Virus genome (UHGV): UHGV-0008758
Strand: one strand, 5' to 3'
DNA length: 17,779 nucleotides
Origin: a virus
How positions within the stretch are numbered: position 1 is the first letter of the stretch; every line of letters begins with the position of its first letter. Below are positions 451-17,779 of this stretch, one piece after another. The notes under the pieces were generated by a model. The model was not told the DNA's origin, searched no databases, and saw only the letters and a list, made by a program, of their open reading frames with translations. The position numbers and the translations under genes are program-made.

Positions 451-466
451 TGGAGCACAAAACCTG

Positions 467-1525: not shown

Positions 1526-1528
1526 ACC

Positions 1529-2179: not shown

Positions 2180-2274
2180 CAGAACGTGCCCCCGCGCACG
2201 GGCGGCACGGGGTGGCGAAAGGCACTGCCACATCAAAACCCCGTCCACCGCCCTCTATTTCAGGAGAAAGCAGC

Positions 2275-2942: not shown

Positions 2943-2945
2943 ATT

Positions 2946-3161
2946 ATGACGCTTGAACGAATCAGCGCCTTTATCACTTACTGCATCGCCGTGCTGCTGG
3001 CATGGCTGGGCGATCTGTCGCTCAAGGATGCGTCAACGGTTGGCGGCGTACTGATTGGTGTGCTGATGCTGGCTATCAACTGGTACTACAAACACCAGTC
3101 TTTCAAATTGTTACGTGGCGGCAAAATTTCGCGGGGGGAATATGAATCCTTCAATCGTTAA
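2946..3161 (+). CDS. holin, two predicted transmembrane helices (class II, possibly pinholin-type)
   Basis: 71 aa with two hydrophobic stretches (ISAFITYCIAVLLAWL and VGGVLIGVLMLAINWYY) and a charged C-tail; immediately precedes and overlaps the endolysin gene. Confidence 0.7.
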   Translation: MTLERISAFITYCIAVLLAWLGDLSLKDASTVGGVLIGVLMLAINWYYKHQSFKLLRGGKISRGEYESFNR

Positions 3162-3651
3162 GCGCTGCCTTGTCGGGGCGGTGCTGGCTATCGCCGCCAC
3201 GCTGCCCGGTTTCCAGTCGCTTCATACCTCCGTTGAGGGGCTGAAACTGATCGCCGATTACGAGGGATGCCGCCTGCAGCCTTATCAGTGCAGCGCGGGC
3301 GTGTGGACCGACGGGATCGGCAATACGTCCGGTGTGGTGCCGGGCAAAACTATCACGGAACGGCAGGCGGCGCAGGGACTTATCACCAATGTGCTGCGCG
3401 TGGAGCGGGCGCTGGAAAAATGTGTGGTGCAGCCGATGCCGCAAAAGGTCTATGACGCGGTGGTGTCGTTTGCTTTCAACGTGGGCACCGGCAACGCCTG
3501 CAGCTCCACGCTGGTTAAGTTGCTGAACCAGCGGCGCTGGGCGGATGCCTGCCATCAGCTGCCGCGCTGGGTGTATGTCAAAGGTGTGTTTAATCAGGGG
3601 CTGGACAACCGCCGCGCGCGGGAAATGGCCTGGTGCTTAAAAGGAGCATAA
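3142..3651 (+). CDS. SAR endolysin, T4-lysozyme fold, P1 Lyz-like (Cys-containing signal-anchor-release domain)
   Basis: From ATG 3142 (G-rich SD at 3133-3138): weakly hydrophobic Ala/Gly-rich N-terminus MNPSIVKRCLVGAVLAIAATL; E41-x8-C50-x5-T56 matches the E-8-D/C-5-T lysozyme triad spacing; extra Cys at 9 and 43; GVWTDGIGNT motif. The track start at 3115 is a GTG with no RBS. Confidence 0.8.
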   Translation: MNPSIVKRCLVGAVLAIAATLPGFQSLHTSVEGLKLIADYEGCRLQPYQCSAGVWTDGIGNTSGVVPGKTITERQAAQGLITNVLRVERALEKCVVQPMPQKVYDAVVSFAFNVGTGNACSSTLVKLLNQRRWADACHQLPRWVYVKGVFNQGLDNRRAREMAWCLKGA

Positions 3652-3655
3652 CGGA

Positions 3656-4033
3656 ATGAAAAAGAAAGTCATGAGTGTTTTTTTCCAGCTGGCATGGGCT
3701 GCGCTGTTGGTTATCAGCCTGCTGTATCCGCGCAGCGGTGCGCCGGTTCTGGTTGGTGCGTCTGTCTGGGTGTCATGCTTCCTCGCCTGGCTGCTTGCTG
3801 CGCTGTGCGCTGTCGGGTGGTTCGCCGGAGATCGGGCACGCGATGAGGTCAGGGCGGCATTGCTGAAATTCAGGGCACACCCTGTAAAACCCGTGCGTAC
3901 ATGGATAATCAGGCTGCTTATTGTTCTGTGCCTGGCGTTTTCGGGATGGGTGATCACCCTGGTGTTTTACCTGCTGACGCTGGTTCTGTATCAGATTGCC
4001 CGCGCGCAGCTTCATGAGCCGATGGCGGCCTGA
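3656..4033 (+). CDS. lysA: LysA-like lysis-accessory membrane protein
   Basis: 125 aa with several hydrophobic helices; positioned between endolysin and spanins as in P2. Confidence 0.65.
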   Translation: MKKKVMSVFFQLAWAALLVISLLYPRSGAPVLVGASVWVSCFLAWLLAALCAVGWFAGDRARDEVRAALLKFRAHPVKPVRTWIIRLLIVLCLAFSGWVITLVFYLLTLVLYQIARAQLHEPMAA

Positions 4034-4485
4034 TGCGTGCGCTGGCGGTAGTGCTGGCGCTGGCACTTGCGGCGCTGGGCTGGCAGTCGTGGCGGCTTAA
4101 CAATGCCAGCAACACCATCGAGACGCAGGGCGCGGCGCTGAAAAGCAAAACGCAGGAGCTGACGAAGAAAAACAGCCAGCTGATTGGCCTGTCCATTCTG
4201 ACCGAAACCAACAGCCGGGCGCAGACGCGACTTTATGCAACAGCGGAGCAGACCACCGCATTGCTGCGAAGCCGCCAGCGCCGGATCGAGGAACTGAAAC
4301 GTGAAAACGAGGATTTGCGCCGCTGGGCTGACACTCCTTTGCCTGCTGACATTATCCGGCTGCGGGAGCGTCCGGCCCTCGCCGGAGGTGCAGCTTACCG
4401 TGAGTGGCTGTCCCAGAGTGACGCAGTGCCGCCTGGAAAGGTCAGCGCCGCGCAGCAACGGCGATCTGAATACGGTGCTGGATGA
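4033..4485 (+). CDS. lysB: i-spanin (Rz-like) LysB
   Basis: 150 aa with an N-terminal TM helix (ALAVVLALALAAL), a charged coiled-coil middle and a Pro-rich C-terminus; ATGA overlap with the LysA stop. Confidence 0.8.
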   Translation: MRALAVVLALALAALGWQSWRLNNASNTIETQGAALKSKTQELTKKNSQLIGLSILTETNSRAQTRLYATAEQTTALLRSRQRRIEELKRENEDLRRWADTPLPADIIRLRERPALAGGAAYREWLSQSDAVPPGKVSAAQQRRSEYGAG

Positions 4486-4591
4486 AACCGAGGCCGCCTG
4501 GGCGGTCTGTGCTGACAAAGTGGACACGATTATTGCGTGTCAGGAGCGAGACAGTGAACAAACCGCAGTCCTTACGCAGCGCCCTGAATAA
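4301..4591 (+). CDS. lysC: o-spanin (Rz1-like) outer-membrane lipoprotein LysC
   Basis: 96 aa in the +1 frame inside and extending past lysB; GTG start with GAGGAA RBS; lipobox LTLSGC placing Cys at about residue 21; Pro-rich mature part; same length as P2 LysC. Confidence 0.75.
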   Translation: MKTRICAAGLTLLCLLTLSGCGSVRPSPEVQLTVSGCPRVTQCRLERSAPRSNGDLNTVLDETEAAWAVCADKVDTIIACQERDSEQTAVLTQRPE

Positions 4592-4985
4592 AGCAGTTGC
4601 CTACGTCCGCGATAATCCGGACAAGCTGCACCTTTTCGTTGATAACGGCTCAATGGTGGCAACCGGTGCCAGCTCCATGTCATGGGAGTACCGCTACACC
4701 CTGAATGTGGTGATCGAAGATTTCAGCGGCGACCAGAATCTGCTGATGGCTCCTGTGCTGCTGTGGCTAAGTGACAACCAGCCGGATGCTATCAATAACC
4801 CGGAGCTGCGCGAAAAACTGTTCACCTTTGAAGTGGATATTCTGCGCAACGATGTGTGCGATATCAGCCTGAACCTGCAGCTGACGGAGCGCGTGCTGGT
4901 CAGCACTGACGGCAGCGTGTCGAGCGTTGAAGCGGTGCCGGAGCCGGACGAACCCGAAGAAATGTGGACGGTGAAACGTGGATGA
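4554..4985 (+). CDS. R: tail completion protein GpR
   Basis: GTG 4554 with AGGAG 8 nt upstream gives about 143 aa; the alternative ATG 4482 (ATGA overlap with the lysB stop) would give 167 aa, so the start is uncertain. Position between the lysis genes and S matches P2. Confidence 0.7.
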   Translation: MNKPQSLRSALNKAVAYVRDNPDKLHLFVDNGSMVATGASSMSWEYRYTLNVVIEDFSGDQNLLMAPVLLWLSDNQPDAINNPELREKLFTFEVDILRNDVCDISLNLQLTERVLVSTDGSVSSVEAVPEPDEPEEMWTVKRG

Positions 4986-5424
4986 ACTGCAGAGGATGGA
5001 TGACTGGCTGACGGCGTTACTGGCGAATCTGGAGCCTGCCGCGCGCAGCCGTATGATGCGGCAACTGGCGCAACAACTGCGCCGGACGCAGCAGCAGAAC
5101 ATCAGGCTGCAGCGTAATCCTGACGGCAGCGGCTATGAGCCGCGCCGGGTGACTGCCCGGAGCAAGAAGGGACGCATCAAACGCCAGATGTTTGCAAAGC
5201 TTCGCACCACAAAATACCTGAAAACCGCCGCCAGTGCGGACTCCGCCAGCGTGCAGTTTGATGGCAAGGTGCAGCGCATTGCCCGTGTTCACCATTACGG
5301 CCTGCGGGATCGCGTCAGCCGAAAAGGCCCGGAGGTCCGCTACGCAGAGCGCCGCCTGCTGGGCGTGAATGAAGAAGTGGAAACCGTCACCCGTGACACC
5401 CTGCTGCGCTGGCTGGCGGGGTGA
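4978..5424 (+). CDS. S: tail completion / virion morphogenesis protein GpS
   Basis: 148 aa with a GTG start overlapping the R stop; Arg/Lys-rich; P2 gpS is about 150 aa. Confidence 0.8.
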   Translation: MDELQRMDDWLTALLANLEPAARSRMMRQLAQQLRRTQQQNIRLQRNPDGSGYEPRRVTARSKKGRIKRQMFAKLRTTKYLKTAASADSASVQFDGKVQRIARVHHYGLRDRVSRKGPEVRYAERRLLGVNEEVETVTRDTLLRWLAG

Positions 5425-5428
5425 TCTT

Positions 5429-5446
5429 TGTGCCACCGCTGGTACA
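5429..5446 (+). promoter_or_regulatory. candidate P2-type late promoter activator box (TGT-N12-ACA) upstream of V
   Basis: TGTGCCACCGCTGGTACA in the S-V intergenic gap; shares the TGTGCCA start with the box upstream of FI; P2 late promoters carry a TGT-N12-ACA dyad bound by Ogr. Confidence 0.5.
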
Positions 5447-5492
5447 AGCGCTCGCACTGCCTCCCTTTTCCCTCTGATGGCAACCTTTCGTT

Positions 5493-6071
5493 ATGAACGC
5501 ACAACTGACCGAAATTATGCGCCTTATCACCAACCTGATCCGCACCGGCACCGTGACCGAAGTGGACCGGGAAAACTGGCTGTGCCGGGTGAGAGTGGGC
5601 GAGCTTGAAACCAACTGGATTAACTGGCTGACGCTGCGTGCCGGTGGTGCCCGTACATGGTGGTGTCCGTCGCCGGATGAGCAGGTGGTGCTGCTGAGTA
5701 TGGGCGGCAATCTGGAAACCGCTTTTGCGTTGCCTGCCATCTATTCCAATCAGTTTGCGCCGCCGTCGGACTCCGTGGACGGTTGCGTGACGGAGTACCC
5801 GGACGGAGGCTGGTTTGAGTATGAACCCGCCACCGGGCGGTGGCATGTCCGGGGTATCAAATCCATGGTGATCGAGGCGGCGGACAATATCACTCTCAAA
5901 ACCGGTGAGTTTGTGGTGGAGGCTGACACCACGCGCATTAACAGCGAGATGGTGATCAATGGCGGCGTCACCCAGGGCGGCGGCGCGATGAGTTCCAACG
6001 GGATCGTGGTGGATAAACACGGTCACACTGGCGTTAAGTCCGGCGGCGATACGTCAGGAGGACCGGTATGA
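5493..6071 (+). CDS. V: baseplate central spike protein GpV
   Basis: 192 aa, Gly-rich C-terminus (GGVTQGGGAMSSNGIVVDKHGHTG); position and size match P2 gpV (about 211 aa). Confidence 0.85.
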   Translation: MNAQLTEIMRLITNLIRTGTVTEVDRENWLCRVRVGELETNWINWLTLRAGGARTWWCPSPDEQVVLLSMGGNLETAFALPAIYSNQFAPPSDSVDGCVTEYPDGGWFEYEPATGRWHVRGIKSMVIEAADNITLKTGEFVVEADTTRINSEMVINGGVTQGGGAMSSNGIVVDKHGHTGVKSGGDTSGGPV

Positions 6072-6427
6072 CGCTGTATATCGGCATGAGCCAGGGCAAC
6101 GGCAAGGCCATTACTGATACTGACCATCTGCGCCAGTCAGTGCGGGATATTCTGCTGACCCCACAGGGCAGCCGGATCGCCCGCCGGGAATATGGTTCCC
6201 TGCTATCCGCCCTGATTGACCAGCCGCAGAACCCGGCGCTACGCCTGCAGGTCATGTCTGCGGTCTATGTGGCGCTGAGTCGCTGGGAGCCACGGCTTAC
6301 GCTGGATTCCATCACCATCAGCAGCAATTTTGACGGCTCCATGGTGGTTGAGCTTACCGGGCAGCGCAATAACGGCGCGTCGGTTTCCCTTTCCGTATCA
6401 ACAGGAGCAGACAATGGCAGTGATTGA
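6068..6427 (+). CDS. W: baseplate wedge protein GpW (gp25-like)
   Basis: 119 aa, ATGA overlap with the V stop; P2 gpW is about 115 aa. Confidence 0.85.
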   Translation: MTLYIGMSQGNGKAITDTDHLRQSVRDILLTPQGSRIARREYGSLLSALIDQPQNPALRLQVMSAVYVALSRWEPRLTLDSITISSNFDGSMVVELTGQRNNGASVSLSVSTGADNGSD

Positions 6428-7322
6428 CCTTTCCCAGTTGCCCGCGCCGCAGATAGTGGACGTGCCGGATTTTGAGACGCTGCTGGCTGAGCGCAAGGCC
6501 GCATTTGTGGCCCTTTATCCGGCGGATGAGCAGGACGCGGTGCGGCGCACGCTGGCGCTGGAATCTGAACCCGTCACCAAGCTTCTGCAGGAAAGCACCT
6601 ACCGTGAAATCCTTTTGCGCCAGCGTATTAACGAGGCCGCGCAGGCGGTCATGGTGGCGTATGCCATCGGCGGCGATCTCGATCAGCTGGCAGCCAACTA
6701 CAACGTGAAACGCCTGACGGTAACGCCTGCCGACAACGACGCGGTGCCGCCGGTCGCGGCAGTAATGGAAAGCGATGAGGCACTGCGCCTGCGTGTTCCG
6801 GCTGCGTTTGAAGGTTTGTCCGTTGCAGGACCGACGGCGGCCTATGAGTTTCACGCCAAAAGCGCGGACGGGCGCGTGGCGGATGCCAGCGCAACCAGCC
6901 CGGCACCGGCGGAGGTGGTGCTTACCGTACTGAGCCGTGAGGGTGACGGTACGGCAGAGGCTGATCTGCTGGCGGTGGTGGAGCAGGCGCTTAACAGTGA
7001 GAACGTGCGCCCGGTGGCAGACCGCCTGACGGTGCGCAGCGCCGAAATAATCCCGTACAGCGTGGATGCGACGATCTTTCTTTATCCGGGGCCGGAAGCT
7101 GAGCCGGTGATGGCGGCGGCAAAAGCTAGCCTGCAGAAGTACATCGCCAGCCAGACGCGGCTGGGCCGTGATATCCGTCGCAGCGCCATTTATGCCGCGC
7201 TGCACGTTGAGGGTGTCCAGCGTGTGGAACTGGCCTCCCCGCTGGATGATATGGTGCTGGATAAGACGCAGGCGGCATCCTGTACGGAATGGAGCGTAAC
7301 CAACGGGGGCACGGATGAATAG
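6414..7322 (+). CDS. J: baseplate protein GpJ
   Basis: The track ORF 6330-7322 is trimmed to ATG 6414 (MAVIDLSQ...) after RBS acaggagcagaca; 302 aa, matching P2 gpJ length. Confidence 0.85.
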   Translation: MAVIDLSQLPAPQIVDVPDFETLLAERKAAFVALYPADEQDAVRRTLALESEPVTKLLQESTYREILLRQRINEAAQAVMVAYAIGGDLDQLAANYNVKRLTVTPADNDAVPPVAAVMESDEALRLRVPAAFEGLSVAGPTAAYEFHAKSADGRVADASATSPAPAEVVLTVLSREGDGTAEADLLAVVEQALNSENVRPVADRLTVRSAEIIPYSVDATIFLYPGPEAEPVMAAAKASLQKYIASQTRLGRDIRRSAIYAALHVEGVQRVELASPLDDMVLDKTQAASCTEWSVTNGGTDE

Positions 7323-7920
7323 CCTGCTGCCGCCCGGTTCATCGCCGCTTGAGCGCCGACTGGCGCAGACCTGCAGCGGCATTTCCGATCTGCAGGTGCC
7401 GCTGCGCGACTTGTGGAACCCGGCAACGTGTCCGGTCAGCTTTCTGCCGTATCTGGCGTGGGCGTTTTCCGTCGACCGCTGGGACGAAAGCTGGACGGAG
7501 AGCGTCAAGCGCCGGGTGGTGCAGGACGCTTTCTATATCCATCAGCACAAGGGGACAACCAGCGCTGTGCGGCGCGTGGTGGAGCCGTTCGGCTTCCTGA
7601 TCCGCATCATTGAGTGGTGGCAGACCGGCGAAACGCCGGGGACGTTTCGCCTTGATATTGGCGTGCAGGAACAAGGCATCACGGAAGAAACCTATCTGGA
7701 ACTTGAGCGGCTGATCGGTGATGCCAAACCGTGCAGCCGTCACCTGATCGGCATGTCCATCAACCTGCAGACCAGTGGGCCGTATTTTATGGGGGCTGCC
7801 ACTTACACCGGCGAAGAAATCACGATCTACCCGTATATCAACGAAACCATTATTTCCGGCGGCACCGCTTATGAGGGCGGGGCAGTCCATGTTATTGACA
7901 CAATGAGAGTAAATCCATGA
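7315..7920 (+). CDS. I: baseplate protein GpI
   Basis: 201 aa, start overlapping the J 3' end; synteny J-I-H. Confidence 0.85.
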   Translation: MNSLLPPGSSPLERRLAQTCSGISDLQVPLRDLWNPATCPVSFLPYLAWAFSVDRWDESWTESVKRRVVQDAFYIHQHKGTTSAVRRVVEPFGFLIRIIEWWQTGETPGTFRLDIGVQEQGITEETYLELERLIGDAKPCSRHLIGMSINLQTSGPYFMGAATYTGEEITIYPYINETIISGGTAYEGGAVHVIDTMRVNP

Positions 7921-9116
7921 GCGCAAAATTTTACACCCTGCTGACGGAAATCGGGGCGGCGAAACTGGCAAGCGCCGCCGCGCTCGGCATTCCGTTGAAA
8001 ATTACCCAGATGGCGGTGGGCGACGGTGGTGGCGTATTACCAACGCCAAGCGCGCAACAGACCGCGTTAGTTGCTGAAAAACACCGCGCCGCGCTGAATA
8101 TGCTGTATATCGATCCGCAGAACAGCAGCCAGATTATTGCTGAGCAGGTGATCCCCGAAACGGAGGGAGGTTGGTGGATTCGTGAGGTAGGTCTGTTTGA
8201 TGAGACTGGAGCACTGATTGCTGTGGGCAACTGCCCGGAGAGCTACAAACCGCAGCTGGCGGAGGGGAGCGGGCGCACGCAGACCGTGCGCATGGTGTTG
8301 ATTACCAGCAGCACAGATAACATCACCCTGAAAATTGATCCGGCAGTGGTGCTGGCGACCCGTAAATATGTTGATGACAAGGTGCTGGAACTAAAGGTGT
8401 ATGTGGATGACCTGATGGCTAGACACCTTGCAGCTGCAGATCCTCATACGCAGTATGCACCAAAAGCCAGTCCGACATTCACTGGTACGCCAAAAGCACC
8501 AACGGCAGCGGCAGGCAATAATTCCACGCAACTTGCTAATACGGCTTTTGTGCAGGCGGCAATTGCTGCACTGGTGGCATCTTCCCCTGCAGCTCTGGAT
8601 ACACTGAATGAGCTGGCAGCAGCGCTGGGGAACGATCCAAATTTTGCCGCCACCATGACAAATGCGCTTGCCGGAAAGATGGATAAGGCAGCCAATGGGA
8701 CGGACATTGCCGACGTATCAGAATTTCTCAAAAACCTTGGTTTAGGAGATATCAGTGCTACAGGTGTTGCGACAGGTAGTATGGGCGAAACCGGATATGC
8801 CATATTTCCGATGATGATTGGCGGTGCACGTAAGACTTTTATTATGCAATGGGGATTGCTGACGCCTCTGAAATCAGGTGGCTATGTGAATATTAACCTT
8901 CCTGTCGCTTTTCCTACTATGGTGATGCAGGCATATGCAACACATGATAATGCGACACTAAACACACGCCCGACAGTATATGCAATTACTACAACAAGCC
9001 GAACCACTATCACTGCGACGGCGACGTGCTTAGATGCTGGCTCAGTGGGCGCTACAGTGACACGCAGTAGTGACGATACTGCGTGTTACGGTCGTTATTT
9101 TGCAATAGGGTGCTGA
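7917..9116 (+). CDS. H: tail fibre protein GpH: conserved N-terminal region plus the currently expressed variable C-terminal tip
   Basis: 399 aa; N-terminus MSAKFYTLLTEIGAAKLASAA... is typical of P2-type fibres; base composition becomes more AT-rich in the 3' part; an invertase crossover site lies inside at 8725-8750. Confidence 0.85.
   Translation: MSAKFYTLLTEIGAAKLASAAALGIPLKITQMAVGDGGGVLPTPSAQQTALVAEKHRAALNMLYIDPQNSSQIIAEQVIPETEGGWWIREVGLFDETGALIAVGNCPESYKPQLAEGSGRTQTVRMVLITSSTDNITLKIDPAVVLATRKYVDDKVLELKVYVDDLMARHLAAADPHTQYAPKASPTFTGTPKAPTAAAGNNSTQLANTAFVQAAIAALVASSPAALDTLNELAAALGNDPNFAATMTNALAGKMDKAANGTDIADVSEFLKNLGLGDISATGVATGSMGETGYAIFPMMIGGARKTFIMQWGLLTPLKSGGYVNINLPVAFPTMVMQAYATHDNATLNTRPTVYAITTTSRTTITATATCLDAGSVGATVTRSSDDTACYGRYFAIGC
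8725..8750. other. left crossover site of the invertible fibre segment (Hin/Gin/Cin-type 26-bp site)
   Basis: TTCTCAAAAACC TT GGTTTAGGAGAT: two 12-bp half-sites around a 2-bp core with the AAACC-NN-GGTTT centre characteristic of hix/gix/cix sites; lies in H codons for EFLKNLGLGD. Confidence 0.7.
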
Positions 9117-9117: not shown

Positions 9118-9561
9118 ATGAATCTTAAATATTTTTCTCCATCTGAAAATGCGTTTTATGCCGGGGAGCTTAAAGAAAGCTATATCGCTGCTGGCTCATG
9201 GCCTTCTGATGCCTCGGAGGTTGATGAAAGTCTTTATCTTGAGTTTATCGATGAGCCGCCAGCAGGTAAGTATCGTGGAGTGGATGATGCAGGTATGCCC
9301 TGCTGGCTTGAAATTCCTCCACCCACCGCAGAGGAAATGGCATCGAATGCAGAGAATATGAGACAGCAGCTCATTGATGAGGCAAATGTTTATATAAACA
9401 AACGTCAGTGGCCGGGAAAAGCAGCGATAGGCCGTTTAAAGGCGGATGAACTGGAACGATATAACCTTTGGCTGGATTACCTGGACGCACTGGAACTGGT
9501 TGATACCTCCAGTGCTCCAGATATTGAATGGCCTACGCCTCCGGCAGTTCAGGCCAGATGA
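9118..9561 (+). CDS. G: tail fibre assembly chaperone GpG (Tfa)
   Basis: 147 aa directly after H; C-terminal motif LWLDYLDALELVDTSSAPDIEWPTPP is typical of Tfa proteins. Confidence 0.85.
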   Translation: MNLKYFSPSENAFYAGELKESYIAAGSWPSDASEVDESLYLEFIDEPPAGKYRGVDDAGMPCWLEIPPPTAEEMASNAENMRQQLIDEANVYINKRQWPGKAAIGRLKADELERYNLWLDYLDALELVDTSSAPDIEWPTPPAVQAR

Positions 9562-10135
9562 CATCCGGCGCGGTGCTGGTATCTGTTGCCGTCACCGCGT
9601 CAATGTAATCCAGCACGGCGTTAAGTCGGGTTGTTTCTGCCTGCGTCAACTTCCGTCCAGCCTGTAATTTCAGCTGAATCAGACTAATGGAAACCATTGC
9701 TGCATCAATCAGTGACTGGCGCTGTGCTTCTGCCGCTTCTACTGCGGCGCTATGCTGTGCCTCAGTATCCGTCACCCATTTCTCACCATCCCATTTATCA
9801 TATGGCGTTAACGGGGCGATAGTGGTTGTATTTTCAGGGTAATCACCCGGAGCTGTGATTTCTTTGGCGTCTCCCGTTTCGGTGTTATAGACGATTTCAC
9901 CGCGATGGTCTGACACATATTCCCATGATTTTAAATCCACAGAACGGCAAATTGTATAACCAGCTTTATGTGTAACTGGTGCATCTAAACAAGAATATGC
10001 CGGGATACCGACGCCAACCGCAAGATATTCAGTTGATGTGGAAATATATTCCCGCGTTTCACCATCATAGTTATAAACGGTAATATCCCCTGCCTTTGTA
10101 GCAACAAGTCCACTATTTAATATTGCTTTATCCAT
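9533..10135 (-). CDS. alternative tail fibre assembly chaperone (Tfa')
   Basis: 200 aa on the minus strand; C-terminal motif LNAVLDYIDAVTATDTSTAPDVIWPELP parallels GpG; its 3' end overlaps the G 3' end by 29 bp; its start overlaps the stop of the alternative fibre tip (TAATG). Confidence 0.8.
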   Translation of the reverse strand: MDKAILNSGLVATKAGDITVYNYDGETREYISTSTEYLAVGVGIPAYSCLDAPVTHKAGYTICRSVDLKSWEYVSDHRGEIVYNTETGDAKEITAPGDYPENTTTIAPLTPYDKWDGEKWVTDTEAQHSAAVEAAEAQRQSLIDAAMVSISLIQLKLQAGRKLTQAETTRLNAVLDYIDAVTATDTSTAPDVIWPELPEA

Positions 10136-10623
10136 TATGCTGCTCTCACGATATAGTTAAATGCAATGTTTCTTGGTCTGTTCTCTGAGGCAGTTGGCAC
10201 TACTCTTGAAGCATCAAAATTGACTAAATGAGGATTGTTTGGGGTATTTGGAATGATTGTGGTGTTACCTATCGTATTACGAAGTGCTGATTGACTTACA
10301 AAAACACCACTCGCTGTATTAAAGCTAATAGCCGCATTAGCTTCGGTTTGTCCATTACCAAATGTGCCGGTTATATTACGAATAGCATCCCCCTGAGCAG
10401 ACAGAATTTCGCGCCCCGCGTCAATACCGCGCCCGTCATCCCAACCACGAATAAACTCACCACGTAAATCAGGCAATTTATTTGTCGGATAAGCCTTTGC
10501 CAGTTCCGGGTATTCTTCAGCAGAAAAAACCGCACCGTTGCATTTCAGCCAGCCTGTTGGCGGAGTGGCGGAAGGCCACGGAACAGGGACACCAACAGGT
10601 AATGCAGAGCCTTCTCCCAAACC
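10135..10623 (-). CDS. silent alternative tail-fibre C-terminal cassette (tail-collar-type tip), with no start codon of its own
   Basis: Minus-strand frame encodes GLGEGSALPVGVPVPWPSATPPTGWLKCNGAVF...LPDLRGEFIRGWDDGRGIDAGR, the classic tail-collar motif of Mu/P1-type fibre tips; an in-frame TGA lies just upstream at 10639-10641 and no start or RBS is present; inversion would fuse it in frame to H. Confidence 0.75.
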   Translation of the reverse strand, partial: GLGEGSALPVGVPVPWPSATPPTGWLKCNGAVFSAEEYPELAKAYPTNKLPDLRGEFIRGWDDGRGIDAGREILSAQGDAIRNITGTFGNGQTEANAAISFNTASGVFVSQSALRNTIGNTTIIPNTPNNPHLVNFDASRVVPTASENRPRNIAFNYIVRAA

Positions 10624-10637
10624 AACCTTTGAAAATG
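10612..10637. other. right crossover site of the invertible segment (inner half and core conserved, outer half degenerate)
   Basis: TTCTCCCAAACC AA CCTTTGAAAATG; the inner half and core are the reverse complement of the left site's inner half and core (GGTTTGGGAGAA versus GGTTTAGGAGAT), but the outer half matches poorly. Confidence 0.55.
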
Positions 10638-10659
10638 GTCACCTATATAGGTGACCATT
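10634..10659. repeat. perfect 26-bp palindrome; candidate terminator for the minus-strand orphan gene or a protein-binding site
   Basis: AATGGTCACCTAT|ATAGGTGACCATT is an exact reverse-complement pair; starts 4 nt beyond the stop of ORF 10664-11086; on the minus strand it is followed by TTCAAAGG, a weak U-tract. Confidence 0.45.
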
Positions 10660-10663
10660 CGGG

Positions 10664-11086
10664 TTAATGCAGCGTTGTAGTTGAGCTGGACTCTGCCATT
10701 GCCACTGTCAATTCATCGCCTTCGGCTGAGATCTTAATGGTATTACTTCCTTCTGATTTAGCGCCTTTTGGTAGACCTAGCTGATCATAGATACACAAGA
10801 ATCTTGAATCATTTATAAAGGTGATTTCTGTTACAGTCCCACCTTCAACGACCTTAGAGTCTATTGATTTTATCAAATTGATATCCTGAACATTAATGTG
10901 CTTTATCGCATCCCAGTTAAGGCTGATGTCCACGTTATCCTTTTGCATCGTTATCACATGACCGGCCTTATGCTGGGTTGTGACTTTTCCATCAGGGCTC
11001 ATCGTAATCTTTTGCCCCATGTGATAAATAATTTGAGTTCCGTCTTCGAGACACTCGATTTTTGGCTCTTTAGTAAAGTCGTTCAT
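10664..11086 (-). CDS. hypothetical protein, 140 aa, AT-rich orphan (accessory/moron candidate)
   Basis: Minus-strand ORF with RBS AAGGA about 7 nt upstream of ATG; hand-counted GC about 38% versus about 60% in flanking structural genes; no TM helix or signal peptide seen; no family recognised. Confidence 0.6.
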   Translation of the reverse strand: MNDFTKEPKIECLEDGTQIIYHMGQKITMSPDGKVTTQHKAGHVITMQKDNVDISLNWDAIKHINVQDINLIKSIDSKVVEGGTVTEITFINDSRFLCIYDQLGLPKGAKSEGSNTIKISAEGDELTVAMAESSSTTTLH

Positions 11087-11291
11087 GAAAATCCTTCAAT
11101 TATCTGTTGCTGGAAGGTGCTAATCTACACGAATCCTTGGTTATGTATGTAATGAGGCTCTAGAAATCCACTTGAATATAAATAAATTTTTATGGTGTTG
11201 GCTTGTAATGCTCGCGTAGCTCTTTGTCAAAAGTGAAACTCTGATAACCTGGTTCTACTGACGAACAGAAGGATGAGCAGGAGATCGCTTT

Positions 11292-11852
11292 ATGATTATT
11301 GGGTATGCACGAGTATCAAGTAACCATCAGGACACCGAGCTTCAGATGCAGGCGCTCAGAGCTGCTGGCTGTAAGTTAATTTTTGAGGAAAAGGCTTCTG
11401 GCCGTAAGACGAATCGACCAATCTTGAAGAAAGTGGTTGAGATGCTTGAACCCGGTGACGAACTGGTCATCTGGAAGTTAGATCGTATCGGTCGCAATGT
11501 ACTGCACGCATTATTGACCTTTCAGAGCCTCGCAGAACGCAATGTTAATATTCGTTCTATTACAGATGGCGTTGACCTGAGCACTGCCAGTGGGCGCTAT
11601 AACTTCCGTAATATTCTCTCTGCGGCACAATATGAGTCTGATCTGAATAGTGAACGCACTCTGGCAGGGTTAGCGGTTGCCCGCGCTAAGGGGAGGATTG
11701 GCGGACGTAAGCCTAAGTATACTGATGAGCACTGGGATGCGTTTGAACGGGAAATTAAGTCCGGCTGCTCACATCGTGATATAGCTCTCAAATATGGGGT
11801 CGGCCTGTCGACTCTCTACAAACGTTATCCGGCTCAGCAAGAGCATCACTAA
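11292..11852 (+). CDS. serine recombinase, DNA invertase (Hin/Gin/Cin/Pin family)
   Basis: 186 aa; N-terminal [13 protein letters not shown] with the catalytic Ser in YARVSS; [11 protein letters not shown]; C-terminal HTH region GRIGGRKPK...[12 protein letters not shown]; AGGAG RBS. Confidence 0.9.
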
Positions 11853-11950
11853 ACACTCTTTGCGTTCATTTTTGCACTGTGCAGAATGTGTCTTTTTGGC
11901 ACCTTCTGGCAGTGCAAAATTTATCGCGTTTTGGTGCAAAAAAATCGCCG

Positions 11951-11980
11951 CGCTACAATCTGCGGGGATTTTTTTTGCCC
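11951..11980 (+). terminator. possible intrinsic terminator after the invertase gene (weak GC dyad plus T8 tract)
   Basis: CCGC...GCGG short stem followed by GGATTTTTTTT at 11967-11976; the stem is weak, so confidence is low. Confidence 0.3.
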
Positions 11981-11987
11981 CTTCCAT

Positions 11988-12005
11988 TGTGCCATTCTCC
12001 ACACA
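11988..12005 (+). promoter_or_regulatory. candidate P2-type late promoter activator box (TGT-N12-ACA) upstream of FI
   Basis: TGTGCCATTCTCCACACA about 75 bp upstream of the FI ATG; same TGTGCCA start as the box upstream of V. Confidence 0.6.
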
Positions 12006-12079
12006 TAGCCCGGTGCGTGCGCAGTGCGCATATCAACCAGAACATAGGCAGACACCCTGTAAACCGGAGAGACTGCCTT

Positions 12080-13252
12080 ATGGCTCAGGACTACCACCAC
12101 GGCGTGCGCGTTGTTGAAATCAACGAGGGCACCCGATCCATTACCACGGTGAGCACCGCCATTGTGGGCATGGTATGCACCGGCGATGATGCTGATGCGT
12201 CCATGTTTCCACTCAATAAGCCGGTTCTGCTGACCGATGTGTTGACCGCCAGCGGTAAAGCGGGCGAGTCCGGCACGCTGGCCCGTTCGCTGGATGCGAT
12301 TGCAGACCAGGCTAAACCCGTGACCGTCGTTGTACGTGTGGCGCAGGGCGAAACCGAAGCGGAAACCACCTCCAACATTATCGGCGGCGTGACCGCTGAC
12401 GGTAAAAAGACGGGCATGAAAGCGCTGCTTTCGGCGCAGTCGCAGCTCGGCGTCAAGCCGCGCATTCTCGGCGTGCCGGGACACGACACGCAGGCGGTTG
12501 CCACTGAGCTGCTGAGCGTGGCGCAGAGCCTGCGCGGGTTTGCTTATCTGTCCGCCTATGGCTGCAAAACGGTGGAAGAAGCGATTGCCTACCGTGACAA
12601 TTTCAGCCAGCGCGAGGGGATGCTGATCTGGCCTGACTTCATCAACTTTGACACCGTGCTGAATGCAGATGCGACGGCTTATGCCTCCGCTCGTGCGCTC
12701 GGCCTGCGTGCCAAAATTGACGAGCAGACCGGCTGGCACAAAACCCTGTCCAACGTGGGCGTGAATGGTGTCACCGGCATTTCCGCTGATGTGTTCTGGG
12801 ATCTGCAGGACCCGGCAACCGATGCGGGACTGTTGAACCAGAACGACGTCACCACGCTTATCCGCAAAGACGGCTTCCGCTTCTGGGGTTCCCGCTGCCT
12901 CAGTGACGATCCGCTGTTTGCCTTTGAGAACTACACCCGCACGGCGCAGGTGCTGGCTGACACCATCGCAGAAGCGCACATGTGGGCGGTGGATGGCGTG
13001 CTTAACCCATCGCTGGCCCGTGACATTATCGAAGGTATCCGCGCCAAGCTGCGCAGCCTGAAAGCGCAGGGTTACATCATCGGCGCAGACTGCTGGCTGG
13101 ATGAGTCGGTGAACGATAAAGACTCCCTGAAAGCCGGGAAGCTCACTATCGACTACGACTACACGCCGGTGCCGCCGCTTGAAAACCTGATGCTGCGCCA
13201 GCGCATCACCGATCAGTACCTGCTGGATTTCTCCAGCCAGGTCAGCGCGTAA
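12080..13252 (+). CDS. FI: tail sheath protein FI
   Basis: From ATG 12080 ([19 protein letters not shown]...) with GGAGAG RBS; about 390 aa versus P2 FI about 396 aa. The track ORF start at 11879 runs through the intergenic promoter region and is rejected. Confidence 0.9.
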
Positions 13253-13261
13253 GGGGACACC

Positions 13262-13777
13262 ATGGCTTTACCACGTAAGTTAAAACACCTGAACCTGTTC
13301 AACGACGGGAACAACTGGCAGGGGATCGTTGAGTCTCTGACCCTGCCGAAATTCACCCGCAAGTTTGAGAAGTATCGCGGCGGCGGTATGCCGGGCGCGG
13401 TGGACGTGGATATGGGGCTGGATGACGGCGCACTGGACACGGAATTTTCAATCGGTGGCACTGAACTGCTGTTATTCAAGCAGATGGGCAAGGCCACCGT
13501 TGACGGCATCCAGCTGCGTTTCACCGGCTCCATTCAGCGTGACGATACCGGGGAAGTGCAGGCCGTTGAGCTGGTTGTGCGCGGGCGCCATAAAGAAGTG
13601 GATTCCGGCGAGTGGAAAACCGGCGAGAGCAGCAGCACCAAAGTCAGCAGCACCAACAGCTACGCGAAGCTGACCATTAACGGTGAGGTGCTCTATGAGG
13701 TCGATCTGGTCAACATGGTTGAAATCGTTGACGGCGTGGACCTGATGGAAGAACACCGTAACGCCCTCGGCCTCTGA
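13262..13777 (+). CDS. FII: tail tube protein FII
   Basis: 171 aa immediately after FI; P2 FII is about 172 aa. Confidence 0.9.
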   Translation: MALPRKLKHLNLFNDGNNWQGIVESLTLPKFTRKFEKYRGGGMPGAVDVDMGLDDGALDTEFSIGGTELLLFKQMGKATVDGIQLRFTGSIQRDDTGEVQAVELVVRGRHKEVDSGEWKTGESSSTKVSSTNSYAKLTINGEVLYEVDLVNMVEIVDGVDLMEEHRNALGL

Positions 13778-13788
13778 TTAACCTTAAC

Positions 13789-13806
13789 GGCGCGGGAAGC
13801 CGCGCC
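13789..13806 (+). terminator. stem-loop between FII and E (candidate partial terminator/attenuator)
   Basis: GGCGCGG-gaag-CCGCGCC, a perfect 7-bp GC stem with a 4-nt loop, followed by AGTATTTCATT. Confidence 0.4.
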
Positions 13807-13831
13807 AGTATTTCATTAACAGGAAACGAAC

Positions 13832-14134
13832 ATGAGCGACAAGCTGACTGAAAAGACCGTAAAACTAGATACCACCATCATGCGCGGTAAAACTGAAATT
13901 ACCGAAATTGTGCTGCGTAAGCCGCAGTCCGGCGCACTGCGTGGCACCCGTCTGCAGGCCATTATGGATATGGACGTGGGCGCGATGATGACTGTGATCC
14001 CGCGAATCTCCTCCCCGACGCTGACTGCGCAGGAAATGGCAGAGCTGGACCCCGCCGATCTGACAGCAATGGCTGTAGAGGTGGTTACTTTTTTGTTGCC
14101 GAAGTCGGTGCTTGCCGATTTGCCGACAACCTGA
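13832..14134 (+). CDS. E: tail assembly chaperone GpE (zero-frame product)
   Basis: 100-aa ORF between the tube and tape-measure genes; contains the slippery heptamer T_TTT_TTG near its 3' end. Confidence 0.8.
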   Translation: MSDKLTEKTVKLDTTIMRGKTEITEIVLRKPQSGALRGTRLQAIMDMDVGAMMTVIPRISSPTLTAQEMAELDPADLTAMAVEVVTFLLPKSVLADLPTT

Positions 14135-14268
14135 CGGTTGATGATCTGGTGGCAGATATTGCCACCATCTTTCACTGGTCGCCGTCCATCACTGACGTTA
14201 TGCCGCTGACTGATGTGCTGGAGTGGCGGCATAAGGCAATTCAGAGAAGCGGGGCCAGCGATGAGTGA
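13832..14268 (+). CDS. tail assembly chaperone E+E' (predicted -1 frameshift fusion product)
   Basis: The -1 frame after the slip encodes about 58 further residues (VAEVGACRFADNLTVDDLVADIATIFHWSPSITDVMPLTDVLEWRHKAIQRSGASDE) ending 8 nt into the tape-measure gene, as in P2 E/E'. Confidence 0.65.
14089..14095 (+). other. programmed -1 ribosomal frameshift slippery site (T TTT TTG)
   Basis: X_XXY_YYZ heptamer in the E frame; the -1 frame stays open from here to TGA at 14266-14268. Confidence 0.7.
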
Positions 14269-16954
14269 TAATAACCTGCGACTGCAGGTAGTTCTGGGGG
14301 CGGTGGATAAGTTAACCCGCCCATTTAAAAATGCACAGGCTGGCTCTAAGGAGCTGGCATCAGCTATTCGACAAACCCGCGATCAGATTAAAAAGCTGAG
14401 TGATGCTGGAGGTCAGCTTAAATCTTTCGATCAGCTAACTCAAAGTGTTAGCCGTACTGGTGCCGAACTGGATCAGGCGAGGCTACGCGCTCAAATGATG
14501 ACGCGCGAAATGTCTTCTTTGGAATCCCCGACAAAAAAACAAACGCAGGCGCTTGAAGCTCAGTGGCGTGCTGTTTCACGTCTTGAACAAAAACAGCAAC
14601 AGGAAACTCGCCAGATGGCGGCAGCCAGGGCTGAGCTTTATCGGCTGGGGTTATCTGCTGGGGGCGGAGCGCGTGAGACGGCACGGATTGCACAAGAAAC
14701 TGAGCGGTATAACCGACAGTTGGCTGAGCAGGAGCGCAGGCTGCGTGAAGTTGGCGAGCGTCAGCGAAAGCTCAACGCCATCAAAGCCAAGGCTGAAAAG
14801 ACCCGCGAGTTAAGGAACTCTCTGGCAGGTAATGGTGCAGGGGCGATGGCGGCTGGGGTAACTACTGGCATGACGTTGCTGGCTCCAGTAAAAGCCTATT
14901 CAGAATCAGAAAATGCAGCGAATCAGCTCGCCGGTTCAATGATGGGGCCGGGCGGAAAGGTAGCGCCTGAATTTGAAAAAATTAACCGGCTTGCAGTTGC
15001 TTTGGGCGATAAGCTGCCGGGAACAACAGCCGACTTTCAGAACATGATGACTATGCTACGCCGTCAGGGTATGTCGGCGCAGGTCATCCTGGGCGGCTTG
15101 GGAGAGTCAGCAGCTTATCTTGGCGTGCAGTTACAGATGGCTCCCACTGCAGCAGCTGAGTTTGCGGCTAAGTTACAAGATGCTACCCAGACCTCCGAAA
15201 AAGACATGATGAATCTGATGGACGTGATCCAGAAAGGATTCTACGCAGGGGTAGATTCAGGAAATATGCTGCAGGGGTTCTCAAAAATCAGCAGTGCGAT
15301 GGATATTATTCATAAAAAGGGATTGGACGCGGCTAAGACATTTGCTCCTCTATTAGTTATGGCTGATCAGGCTGGTATGGCTGGAGAGTCAGCTGGTAAT
15401 GCCTACCGAAAAGTATTTCAGTCCGTCATGAATACGGAAAAAGTGAAGGATGCTAATGATGAACTAAAAGGCACCGGTGTTAAGTTCGATTTTACGGATG
15501 GCAAGGGGGAGTTTGGCGGGCTGGAGAAAATGTACACGCAGTTAGCTCAACTCCAAAAGCTTAATACTGAGAAAAGGTTAGCTACTCTAAAAGGTATTTT
15601 TGGGGATGATGCGGAAACGCTGCAGGTGCTAAATATTATGATTACCAAAGGCATCTCAGGGTATCGAGAAACGGCTTCAAAGCTACAAAATCAGGCTTCT
15701 CTGCGCGAGCGTGTTGATGCCTCCTTGAATACTCTTGGTAATAAATGGGAAGCCGCTACAGGTTCCTTTACCAATGCTATGGCTAGTATCGGTGAAACAG
15801 TCGCCCCTGCATTAAAGAAGCTGGCAGCTGGCTTTGCGATTGTTGCTACCGCCGTTGGGGTTGTTTCACTGGCGCTGGCGTCCGTGTTAGGACCGATGGC
15901 AGTAGTGCGAATGAGCGCAGGGGTGATGGGGCTAAAATTTTCATCTGCATTTGGTCTTATTGGGAAAGCAATCAGTTCTGTTGGCAAGTCAGTTATATGG
16001 CTGGGCCGATTGATGTTTGCAAATCCTATACTGGCTGTCATTGGGTTGATCGCCGCTGGTGCTATTTATATCTGGCAGAATTGGGACACGCTTGGGCCAA
16101 AGTTCAAGGCCATGTGGGATGCCGTATGTAATGCCACAGGTACGGCATGGGATTGGATTAAAGAAAAGGCCAGCGCCGCATGGGAGGGGATTAAATCACT
16201 GTTCTTTAATTATACCTTGCCGGGATTAATAGCTAAAAATTGGGATGCAATAAAATCTGGCGTTTCTGAGGCGTGGGCTAATATCAGGCAATCTATTAGT
16301 GATAAATGGAATTCGATCTTGGCTGATGTTGCCGCGCTTCCTGCGAAGTTTCAGGACATGGGCAGCGCCATTATTGACAGTATTCTTAATGGAATTAATG
16401 CCAAATGGGAGACACTAAAAAGCAAGCTTTCCTCAGTCACCGATTATCTGCCTGACTGGATGACCGGAAATAATAAAACACAAGGCAAAGCACAGGTGCA
16501 GGTGGTTGGTGGAGCAGCGGCTGCTGCGGTTCCGTTTGCTGGCATGTATGACAGCGGTGGCACGATCCCGCGTGGTCAGTTTGGCATCGTTGGGGAGAAC
16601 GGCCCCGAAATAGTGAACGGTCCCGCAAATGTGACCAGCAGACGGCGCACTGCTGCGCTGGCTTCCGTCGTTGCAGGCGTTATGGGCGTAGCGGCAGCGC
16701 CTGCAGAGGCTGCTCCACTACATCCTTACAGTCTGCCTACTGTGGCATATAAACAAAGCCAGCCAGCGAAATCAGCCAGCGCGCCGCCTGTGATGCACTT
16801 TGAAACTCACGCGCCGATCACTATCTATGCTCAGCCAGGGCAAAGTGCGCAGGATATTGCCCGTGAAGTGGCGCGGCAGCTCGACGAGCGTGAACGCAGG
16901 GCCAGGGCTAAAGCACGCAGTAATTTCAGCGATCAAGGGGGATATGAATCATGA
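14261..16954 (+). CDS. T: tail tape measure protein GpT
   Basis: About 897 aa from ATG 14261 (MSDNNLRLQ...); coiled-coil N-terminal third, Gly/Ala-rich hydrophobic segments near the C-terminal third; position after E/E'. The track start at 14213 is an upstream extension. Confidence 0.9.
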   Translation: MSDNNLRLQVVLGAVDKLTRPFKNAQAGSKELASAIRQTRDQIKKLSDAGGQLKSFDQLTQSVSRTGAELDQARLRAQMMTREMSSLESPTKKQTQALEAQWRAVSRLEQKQQQETRQMAAARAELYRLGLSAGGGARETARIAQETERYNRQLAEQERRLREVGERQRKLNAIKAKAEKTRELRNSLAGNGAGAMAAGVTTGMTLLAPVKAYSESENAANQLAGSMMGPGGKVAPEFEKINRLAVALGDKLPGTTADFQNMMTMLRRQGMSAQVILGGLGESAAYLGVQLQMAPTAAAEFAAKLQDATQTSEKDMMNLMDVIQKGFYAGVDSGNMLQGFSKISSAMDIIHKKGLDAAKTFAPLLVMADQAGMAGESAGNAYRKVFQSVMNTEKVKDANDELKGTGVKFDFTDGKGEFGGLEKMYTQLAQLQKLNTEKRLATLKGIFGDDAETLQVLNIMITKGISGYRETASKLQNQASLRERVDASLNTLGNKWEAATGSFTNAMASIGETVAPALKKLAAGFAIVATAVGVVSLALASVLGPMAVVRMSAGVMGLKFSSAFGLIGKAISSVGKSVIWLGRLMFANPILAVIGLIAAGAIYIWQNWDTLGPKFKAMWDAVCNATGTAWDWIKEKASAAWEGIKSLFFNYTLPGLIAKNWDAIKSGVSEAWANIRQSISDKWNSILADVAALPAKFQDMGSAIIDSILNGINAKWETLKSKLSSVTDYLPDWMTGNNKTQGKAQVQVVGGAAAAAVPFAGMYDSGGTIPRGQFGIVGENGPEIVNGPANVTSRRRTAALASVVAGVMGVAAAPAEAAPLHPYSLPTVAYKQSQPAKSASAPPVMHFETHAPITIYAQPGQSAQDIAREVARQLDERERRARAKARSNFSDQGGYES

Positions 16955-17436
16955 TGATGGTGCTGGGGTTATATGTCTTCATGTTGCGTACAGTGCCATA
17001 TCAGGAGCTGCAGTATCAGCGCAGCTGGCGACACGCTGCGAACAACCGGGTGAACCGTCGTCCGTCAACGCAGTTCCTTGGGCCGGATAATGACTCGCTC
17101 ACGTTATCTGGCGTACTGCTGCCGGAAGTCACCGGCGGCAGGCTGTCATTGCTGGCGCTAGAGTTGATGGCGGAGCAGGGAAAAGCCTGGCCTCTGATTG
17201 AAGGAAGTGGAACCATTTACGGTATGTTTGTGATTGAAAGTCTGAGCCAGACCAAAACGGAGTTTTTTGCAAGCGGCATGCCTCGACGCATTGAGTTTAC
17301 GATTACCCTCAAACGGGTTGATGAGTCGCTGTCTGACTTGTTCGGGAGCCTGAGTGACCAGCTGAGCAACCTGCAGGATTCTGCAGCCTCTGCAGTTGGG
17401 GGAATTAAAAACACAGTTGGAGGATTGCTGCAGTGA
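16951..17436 (+). CDS. U: tail protein GpU
   Basis: 161 aa with ATGA overlap with the T stop; P2 gpU is about 159 aa. Confidence 0.85.
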   Translation: MMMVLGLYVFMLRTVPYQELQYQRSWRHAANNRVNRRPSTQFLGPDNDSLTLSGVLLPEVTGGRLSLLALELMAEQGKAWPLIEGSGTIYGMFVIESLSQTKTEFFASGMPRRIEFTITLKRVDESLSDLFGSLSDQLSNLQDSAASAVGGIKNTVGGLLQ

Positions 17437-17779
17437 ATTTTAATTCTGATCTCCTGAACCTTAACAGCAAAAGCCCGGCTTTCAGTATCACCATTGAAGG
17501 TAAGGACGTGACTGCCGCGCTGGATGCGCGTCTGATGAGTCTGACGCTCACCGATAACCGGGGTTTTGAAGCGGACCAGCTTGATCTGGAGCTGGACGAC
17601 GCCGACGGGCAGATCGTTCTGCCGCGACGTGGTGCCGTTATTCAGCTGGCGCTGGGATGGAAGGGCCAGCCGCTTTTCCCAAAAGGGGCCTTTACCGTGG
17701 ATGAGATTGAACACACTGGCGCACCGGACCGCCTGACTATCCGGGCGCGAAGTGCTGATTTTCGTGAAACGCTGAATAC
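17433..17779 (+). CDS. D: tail protein GpD (late control D family), N-terminal part, runs off the window end
   Basis: GTG 17433 overlaps the U stop (GTGA) with GGAGG 8 nt upstream; open to the window end (VNFNSDLLNLNSKSPAFSITIEGKDV...); not in the ORF track because it has no stop inside the window. Confidence 0.8.
   Translation, partial: MNFNSDLLNLNSKSPAFSITIEGKDVTAALDARLMSLTLTDNRGFEADQLDLELDDADGQIVLPRRGAVIQLALGWKGQPLFPKGAFTVDEIEHTGAPDRLTIRARSADFRETLN

Follow-up and report, generated by a model that had tools for sequence, protein, structure and literature searches.

A 140-residue gene of a very small, undescribed family is probable accessory cargo in the Z/fun slot of a P2-like prophage, beside a fibre-inversion module

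Results

An accessory gene cassette between fibre-assembly genes and the sheath gene

We analyzed an open reading frame (ORF) of 140 codons located on the minus strand of the UHGV virus genome UHGV-0008758, a stretch of 17,779 nucleotides that is referred to here, at its full length, as the window. An earlier note, made from the sequence alone, had placed this ORF between an invertible fibre cassette and an invertase, in the position of the Z/fun locus of P2-like phages, and had considered it the best candidate in the window for an undescribed function. We observed that the finding is real and correctly located, and that the interpretation given to it is partly supported: the ORF is cargo of the hotspot or moron type, and it belongs to an undescribed and very small family. 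Regarding its anatomy, it is probably an autonomous accessory cassette inserted in the Z/fun slot that rides with a mobile fibre-switch module, and this reading is well supported by the comparisons described below. The features of the region are listed in Table 1.

The limits of the cassette were obtained from alleles that lack it. The same invertase lineage is present without the ORF in three PLSDB plasmids and in pMCR10_2641_2, with 96–98% nucleotide identity; one ORF-less copy of this gene lies in a Mu-like prophage carried by an IncFII plasmid. In these alleles, homology to the window resumes at 11203, and approximately 105 bp separate the crossover core from the ATG of the invertase. Additionally, no ORF is annotated between the invertible segment and the invertase in the phages pro483 and MET_P1 or in the prophage L021. 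Since the ORF-less alleles and phages delimit it, the ORF-specific DNA can be assigned approximately to positions 10638–11202.

The position of this cassette corresponds, as had been proposed, to the slot between the fibre-assembly gene and FI in which P2 has fun(Z), also on the minus strand. The comparison of this locus across related phages, which the earlier note had suggested, revealed that it is variable: it contains fun(Z) in P2, the invertase alone in pro483 and MET_P1, and the ORF together with the invertase in the window. In common with fun(Z), the ORF occupies the interval between the assembly gene G and FI, downstream of the V operon and ahead of P_F, and represents non-essential cargo of low GC content. 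In contrast, the two show no sequence similarity (tblastn, E ≤ 1), the ORF product has 140 residues and Fun(Z) 528, and the ORF is bound to an invertase module and is also present in a Mu-like phage. The Z/fun slot has been documented as a mixed-purpose hotspot where fibre swapping, frequent invertases, and defence-like cargo are found (bioRxiv 10.1101/2024.10.15.618418). As to a superinfection-exclusion or anti-phage role of the ORF itself, no PADLOC matches and no similarity to any sequenced phage were obtained. The survey of P2 hotspots by Rousset et al. dealt with the cos-adjacent old/tin locus and not with this slot.

The ORF also has the traits of the morons of temperate phages. It is a single gene placed between genes that are adjacent in relatives, its composition deviates from that of the surroundings (40.5% GC for the cassette, as compared with 54.9% for the window and 59.4% for its left arm), and it is followed by a terminator-like hairpin; it differs from them in that the promoter candidates in its spacer are weak or ambiguous. 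The definition of a moron reportedly comes from the work of Juhala, Hendrix and colleagues on HK97 and HK022. As is the case for other Z/fun cargo, the ORF is found between the fibre-assembly genes and FI, outside the late operons.

The cassette is linked to one invertase lineage

The protein encoded by the ORF had been described as an orphan, which is correct in the sense that it belongs to no described family, but it is not unique, as identical copies are indexed in 1750 blocks of public assemblies under the name 'MULTISPECIES hypothetical protein [Enterobacterales]'. Among 5426 complete E. coli genomes, only 3 encode the identical protein. All the copies that were fetched are 100% identical at the nucleotide level, and the ORF was intact in every relative seen. 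Eight distinct contexts were read, and in all of them it is transcribed divergently from this invertase gene and has fibre genes beside it; seven of these contexts are P2-like, and one (L013) is Mu-like. The invertase is intact in every context except L012 (CP063956.1, locus 5304–5795), where a frameshift leaves a product of 163 residues with an altered C-terminus, next to an intact ORF.

The unit that travels together (Table 1) is 99.85% identical in the Mu-like prophage L013, where it starts exactly at the crossover core. In L010, the unit is 99.6% identical, and the DNA to the right of it is more diverged, because the longer stretch that contains the unit (10613–14383) averages only 91.5% identity. 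Judging from these alignments, the gene goes with one particular invertase lineage and not with the P2 locus itself. The simplest reading of the available sequences is that the linkage between both genes is physical, given that they lie between two recombination breakpoints: the invertase is conserved in the alleles that lack the ORF (these differ by only 2–3 residues), the ORF remains intact in L012, and the more distant relatives of the ORF are not placed beside invertases.

In L013 (GCA_042742115.1, locus 5129–6463), the unit closes a Mu-like tail module that has a single fibre-plus-chaperone cassette; the fibre gene contains a hix-like site, and past the invertase comes an NTP_transf_2/AadA_C gene. 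The block common to the Mu-like prophage and the plasmids ends at 11957/11958, within a GC hairpin followed by eight T residues (11948–11975) that resembles a terminator. This hairpin is preceded by an inverted repeat, TTTTGCACTG...CAGTGCAAAA (11869–11919), located right after the stop codon of the invertase.

Table 1. Features in and around the ORF cassette (positions in the window)
Feature	Position	Strand	Details
ORF, 140 residues	10664..11086	-	ATG start; protein identical to WP_003030314.1; predicted all-beta
Shine-Dalgarno sequence AAGGA	11092..11096	-	TTTTC between it and the ATG
Divergent AT-rich spacer, ORF versus invertase	11087..11291	.	205 bp, 38.5% GC
ORF-specific cassette	10638..11202	.	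about 565 bp, 40.5% GC; missing from ORF-less alleles
Unit travelling together	10624..11957	.	from the crossover core and outer half-site through the palindrome, ORF, and spacer to the invertase, plus about 105 bp more
Perfect 26-bp palindrome AATGGTCACCTAT/ATAGGTGACCATT	10634..10659	-	13+13 inverted pair
Gin/Hin-type serine DNA invertase, 186 residues	11292..11852	+
Right crossover (hix/gix-like) site TTCTCCCAAACC AA CCTTTGAAAATG	10612..10637	.	outer half-site degenerate
Left crossover site TTCTCAAAAACC TT GGTTTAGGAGAT	8725..8750	.	inside H, constant/variable junction
Silent alternative cassette	9533..10620	-	fibre-assembly protein 9533–10135 and fibre C-terminus 10135–10620
Fibre gene H	7917–9116
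Fibre-assembly gene G	9118–9561
Ogr-type activator box TGT-N12-ACA, late promoter P_F	11988..12005	+	83 bp before the FI ATG (12080)

Gene anatomy and expression signals

The ORF is 423 bp long, and its translation starts as had been quoted. The product is a soluble, mildly acidic protein of 15 kDa (pI 5.1). The absence of a transmembrane helix and of a signal peptide was verified; no hydrophobic segment is present (maximum Kyte-Doolittle value over 19 residues, 0.51), which indicates a cytoplasmic protein. According to the comparison of sequences, the ORF is a genuine gene, with full-length relatives at 27–42% identity and a ratio of nonsynonymous to synonymous substitutions (dN/dS) of 0.31 for two of them.

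The ribosome-binding site that had been pointed out is indeed present; the spacer to the ATG is 5 nucleotides, and the 7 nucleotides reported previously are approached when the distance is counted from the middle of the motif. The low GC content of the ORF is also correct, although the computed value is 40.7% rather than the hand-counted 38%. The backbone of about 60% GC exists only in the left arm (1–7900, 59.4%), since the right arm has 54.1% and the whole window 54.9%. The low-GC zone exceeds the ORF: values of 46–49% GC are also shown by the variable part of H, the two fibre-assembly genes, the silent cassette, and the invertase.

The AT-rich divergent region upstream of the ORF was found to have exactly the length that the earlier note gave. 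In this spacer, the best candidate for a sigma-70 promoter on the minus strand is weak (TTGACA at 11230–11225, a 17-nucleotide spacer, and TACAAG), and its −35 element overlaps that of the best candidate on the invertase strand (TTGTCA at 11224, plus strand). A scan of the window for the Ogr-type box TGT-N12-ACA yielded four copies, which is about the chance expectation, and none of them is in the spacer between the ORF and the invertase. One copy is placed before FI with the spacing to the ATG of the annotated activator site of P2 pF, and another one before V (5429–5446); these two probably correspond to the Ogr-dependent late promoters P_F and P_V. The remaining two, at 13296 and 14572, are inside late genes. 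With an Ogr-type box placed before FI and none in the spacer, the ORF is outside the late regulon. An Rfam search of positions 10300–12200 retrieved nothing real.

On the 3' side of the ORF, the perfect palindrome previously noticed was confirmed. A perfect 13+13 palindrome in 17.8 kb has a chance expectation of approximately 17779/4^13 = 3e-4. On the ORF strand, its RNA would form a stem of 12 bp with a loop of 4 nucleotides, followed by UUUUC (−23.2 kcal/mol, z = −3.9). From these properties, the palindrome is probably the intrinsic terminator of the ORF; a scan with a strict terminator consensus, in which at least 5 T residues are required, does not list it. The palindrome shares 4 bp with the outer half of the right crossover site. 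We discarded that it could be a second crossover site, since its half-sites are unlike hix/gix and the central TA would be symmetric, and also that it could be an operator with a partner site, since no second copy of the half-site exists in the window.

The fibre-inversion module

The invertase adjacent to the ORF aligns along its full length with Mu Gin (3uj3, E = 5e-55, residues 1–185), and carries PF00239 and HTH_7, that is, a resolvase catalytic domain and a C-terminal helix-turn-helix. Apart from the sites at 8725 and 10612, no other strong hix-like site was detected in the window, and there is none at the 5' end of the ORF. In the related prophages L009 and L010, the cassette at 10403–10625 is in the opposite orientation and fused to H, which means that both states of the segment occur in nature; the homology breakpoints in related loci are at 10611–10625. 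The ORF is located just outside the invertible segment, beyond the right crossover site, so that the placement between the fibre cassette and the invertase was accurate. The silent cassette is co-directional with the ORF. The insertion sequence IS1A was found in the invertible fibre segment of L002 (E. coli E41, locus 3109–3806).

The neighbouring system is a fibre switch of the same kind as Mu G-segment/gin, P1 C-segment/cin, and e14 P-segment/pin: its invertase is Gin-like, hix/gix-like sites of 26 bp mark where the constant part of the fibre gene meets the variable one, and the alternative cassettes combine a fibre tip with a chaperone. In the sequenced P2-like examples that were checked, the invertase gene begins approximately 30–430 bp away from the segment, and no ORF is annotated in the gap. 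In contrast, the window has a 565-bp gene cassette interposed and an altered outer half-site.

The possibility that the ORF is itself a fibre-tip cassette was rejected, because no crossover site flanks it, it has a start codon of its own, and it is located past the right site. A role as a virion or tail-fibre accessory protein, or as a cassette left over from a multi-inversion system, is very improbable given that the ORF has its own ATG and Shine-Dalgarno sequence, an N-terminus conserved in stand-alone relatives, no crossover site at its 5' end, no late-promoter box, no PHROG matches, and no homologue in 50,697 phage records, and that it is missing from functional phages such as pro483.

Mosaic structure of the surrounding prophage

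The window corresponds to the late region of a P2-like prophage, with capsid and lysis genes followed by the baseplate genes V, W, J, and I; to the right of the invertase are the genes of the sheath (FI, from 12080), the tube, E, the tape-measure protein, and U. This region is a mosaic. Three E. coli prophages (L001, L008, and L010) match positions 1–8671 at 82–86% identity, and two of them, L001 and L008, match positions 10613–17779 at 99–99.9%; the change from one level to the other is located in the invertible fibre region. The alignment with L001 and L008 is interrupted at approximately 15818–15825 by an indel in the tape-measure gene, whose ORF has 913 residues in the window and 925 in these relatives. 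In L001 (E. coli ET734), six genes are flagged by RefSeq as frameshifted (the terminase endonuclease subunit, baseplate J, tail assembly, tape-measure, U, and one hypothetical gene), suggesting a decaying prophage or assembly errors. In L008 (GCA_046246055.1, locus 11266–12423), a gene with a SIR2_2 domain is found beside the baseplate gene V; it is likely a defence gene in a different slot.

A very small protein family in accessory loci

The family was searched exhaustively with HMMER over 1.84 billion representatives, complemented with profile and word-indexed searches. It is tiny, with seven clusters at 90% identity among 5.8 billion sequences. One of them is the near-identical Enterobacterales cluster, whose 24 sequence variants come from E. 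coli, Citrobacter, and Kluyvera. The others are represented by P0017 (42% identity, with the N-terminus frameshifted in L006), P0016 (37%), P0018 and P0020 (28–33%, the latter from Serratia plymuthica), P0022 (27–29%, from Raoultella), and the fragment P0021. Because length and residues are conserved, and dN/dS between P0020 and P0018 is 0.31, the protein is under purifying selection. A match to a eukaryotic Ig-repeat protein of 538 residues (P0019, E = 8e-6) was judged spurious.

In agreement with the statement that the protein resembles nothing recognizable, no meaningful match was obtained in Pfam, PHROGs, PADLOC, or NCBIfam; PADLOC-DB 2.0 gave no family at E ≤ 1, and no PHROG family, structural or fibre-accessory, was hit. 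With tblastn, no match to the ORF was detected in the phage records mentioned above, which include P2 and phi80 (E ≤ 1), or in 72,556 plasmid records. Scans with degenerate patterns of the GTDB species-representative genomes and the JGI metagenomes found no relative, and IMG/VR contains only two copies, both identical to the ORF.

The relatives are likewise laid out as single genes, with AT-rich DNA upstream, a strong Shine-Dalgarno sequence, and a terminator hairpin. The two closest ones, P0016 and P0017, are encoded directly downstream of tssE in clusters resembling those for a type VI secretion system (T6SS); these tssE genes score 80 and 60 bits against TIGR03357, whose cut-off is 53 bits. 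P0020 and P0018 are convergent with the gene of a giant LPD/MuF polyvalent protein or its remnant, P0022 is at the edge of an element with dinI, umuDC, and a Hin-like recombinase, and P0021 is near a TacA antitoxin gene. From what these sequences reveal, the contexts are all accessory loci, none is a phage tail region, and none of them indicates a single function.

The T6SS-like cluster fragments L006 (1–3226) and L016 encode proteins of 395 (partial) and 359 residues before tssE and one of 156 residues after it, none of which matched Pfam or NCBIfam; in L016, the family gene stands alone between tssE and the next gene. The other neighbours of P0016 and P0017, on contigs of only 1.1–4.3 kb, could not be assigned to a cognate effector or to VgrG, PAAR, or Hcp. 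Two assignments were left aside for want of Pfam support, namely that the gene after P0016 is TssA/ImpA-like and that the 395-residue protein of L006 ends in a toxin domain.

A predicted non-enzymatic fold

The N-terminal half of the ORF product can be read as a series of hairpins with DG turns (EDGTQIIYHMGQKITMSPDGKVTTQHKAGHVITM), and its relatives have one extra repeat. When the family profile was compared with the PDB, a match with the G-box/TCP10 domain of CPAP was obtained (E = 0.0016), and the Pfam family Tcp10_C was matched below the threshold in four of eight members (best E = 3.4e-5). The ORF product differs from the TCP10 C-terminal domain or CPAP/SAS-4 G-box (PF07202) in that it gives no match by itself, the match of the relatives spans only the N-terminal third to half, and the G-box belongs to a eukaryotic centriole protein that is not an orthologue. 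The AlphaFold model made from the single sequence had a mean predicted local distance difference test (pLDDT) value of 46, and Foldseek found no match of the predicted structure at E ≤ 0.001 in the PDB or BFVD. These predictions suggest that the N-terminal half, whose repeats are reminiscent of the open beta-meander of TCP10 and the G-box, is a binding scaffold rather than an enzyme, with a resemblance of fold and not membership of the family.

Discussion

A candidate protective factor of the lysogen

According to our proposal, the ORF would be an autonomous moron that a P2-like prophage carries within its fibre-inversion module. The cassette has AT-rich DNA upstream, a strong Shine-Dalgarno sequence, the 140 codons themselves, and a probable terminator that would end the transcript at the edge of the invertible segment. 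It is dispensable for the invertase and lacks an Ogr-type late promoter. The product would be made in the lysogen from its own promoter and would act stoichiometrically, by binding and neutralizing a foreign protein that enters the cell or is made in it, most likely a component of a superinfecting phage, and this binding would benefit both the host and the prophage. Our reasons for proposing this mechanism are where the ORF lies and on which strand, that it has no late-promoter box, that it is laid out like a moron, and that its predicted fold is non-enzymatic. Expression in the lysogen combined with neutralization of an incoming foreign protein, including protection against proteins that do not come from phages, is a tentative possibility to which we assign somewhat less than an even chance.

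By analogy, the nearest conceptual precedent is that of the Tai tail-assembly-interference proteins, which occur in prophages, phage-inducible chromosomal islands, and P4-like satellites (PMC11364771). The kind of mechanism would be the same as the one proposed here, since a Tai protein is a single non-enzymatic prophage protein, encoded in an accessory hotspot, that binds a structural protein of the competing phage; in contrast, there is no similarity between them (phi80, which encodes TaiEcA, gave no tblastn match), and the genomic position differs.

Several observations weigh against a protective role of this type. PADLOC does not link the ORF to any known defence or exclusion system, and the neighbours of its relatives gave no PADLOC matches either. 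Most known exclusion proteins are located in the membrane or the periplasm, whereas the ORF product is cytoplasmic. The tight linkage between the ORF and the invertase could reflect function and not mere physical linkage, and the closest relatives, being in T6SS contexts, speak for competition among bacteria and not for phages. Regarding the fold, the Tcp10_C scores are 15–24 bits, under the Pfam cut-off of 36 bits, and the AlphaFold model made from eight sequences is weak (pLDDT 63, predicted template modelling score 0.44). Finally, a strict promoter scan finds none in the 205-bp spacer, and the best lenient candidate has a poor −10 element.

The proposal may be widened to the whole family, which would then be an undescribed group of stand-alone, non-enzymatic proteins with beta-hairpin repeats that work as single-gene immunity or defence factors by sequestering an incoming protein, and that in Enterobacterales are common to the host-range-switch modules of prophages, T6SS clusters, and further mobile elements. 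We regard this generalization as rather doubtful.

Other explanations for the ORF

Among the alternatives, the ORF product could be an orphan immunity or accessory protein directed against an interbacterial toxin; the family would have originated in T6SS clusters, and the prophage copy would shield the lysogen from the effector of a competitor. The location of the two closest relatives right after tssE genes, which score above the TIGR03357 cut-off, agrees with this idea, as does the fact that the non-core genes of Enterobacterales T6SS clusters include effector and immunity genes (PMC3533786). A small non-enzymatic binder is compatible with an immunity role, and orphan immunity genes have been noted in the literature (PMC10539506). 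Nevertheless, no family member has a recognizable effector next to it (Pfam and NCBIfam returned nothing for the neighbours), the gene of L016 has no partner between tssE and the next gene, the other relatives are in contexts unrelated to T6SS, and the T6SS link comes from two short contigs only. Taken together, these data make this explanation improbable.

There is a similarly small chance that the protein participates in counter-defence, neutralizing a host immune protein on entry or induction of a phage or mobile element. It is small, acidic, non-enzymatic, and rapidly spreading, and its gene has a candidate promoter of its own. Polyvalent LPD/MuF proteins are presumably delivered together with the incoming DNA, and P0020 and P0018 are encoded beside the gene, or the remnant, of such a protein. 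However, the ORF is deep in the late tail region and on the opposite strand, which is unexpected for early anti-defence genes, the relatives within chromosomal T6SS clusters do not agree with this role, and no similarity to known anti-defence families was found in Pfam or PHROGs.

A still smaller probability corresponds to a modulator of the fibre switch, in which the ORF product would bind the Gin-type invertase, the crossover site, or Fis, and thereby bias or gate inversion. In favour of it, the ORF is divergent from the same invertase lineage across a common spacer in the eight contexts, the pair enters a Mu-like phage as a unit, at the right crossover site the outer half-site is replaced by the cassette, the palindrome overlaps this site, and the −35 elements of both candidate promoters overlap. 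Yet the ORF-less alleles of the same invertase are conserved, with 2–3 different residues, and for this reason an obligatory cofactor was discarded. Moreover, distant family members are not beside invertases, the ORF is intact next to the frameshifted invertase of L012, both orientations of the cassette occur with the ORF present, and the position of both genes between two recombination breakpoints simply explains the linkage. To our knowledge, no phage-encoded accessory protein has been described for Hin/Gin invertases; should the ORF product contact the invertase, a partner encoded by a phage would be on record for the first time for a switch of the Gin/Hin type.

Implications of the cassette

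At present, the ORF represents one well-delimited gene, and many comparable ones exist. Its interest as moron cargo lies in that genes carried in prophage hotspots have repeatedly proved to be new immune or competition factors; in addition, it is compact (423 bp), nearly invariant across prophages of E. coli, Citrobacter, and Kluyvera, and easily cloned. If the protein is protective, a very small, non-enzymatic cytoplasmic binder would join the repertoire of defence and immunity, and the Z/fun slot together with the mobile fibre-inversion module would spread such factors between P2-like and Mu-like phages. If the suggestion made for the family is true, a phage cassette for switching receptors would also carry a factor that protects the lysogen.
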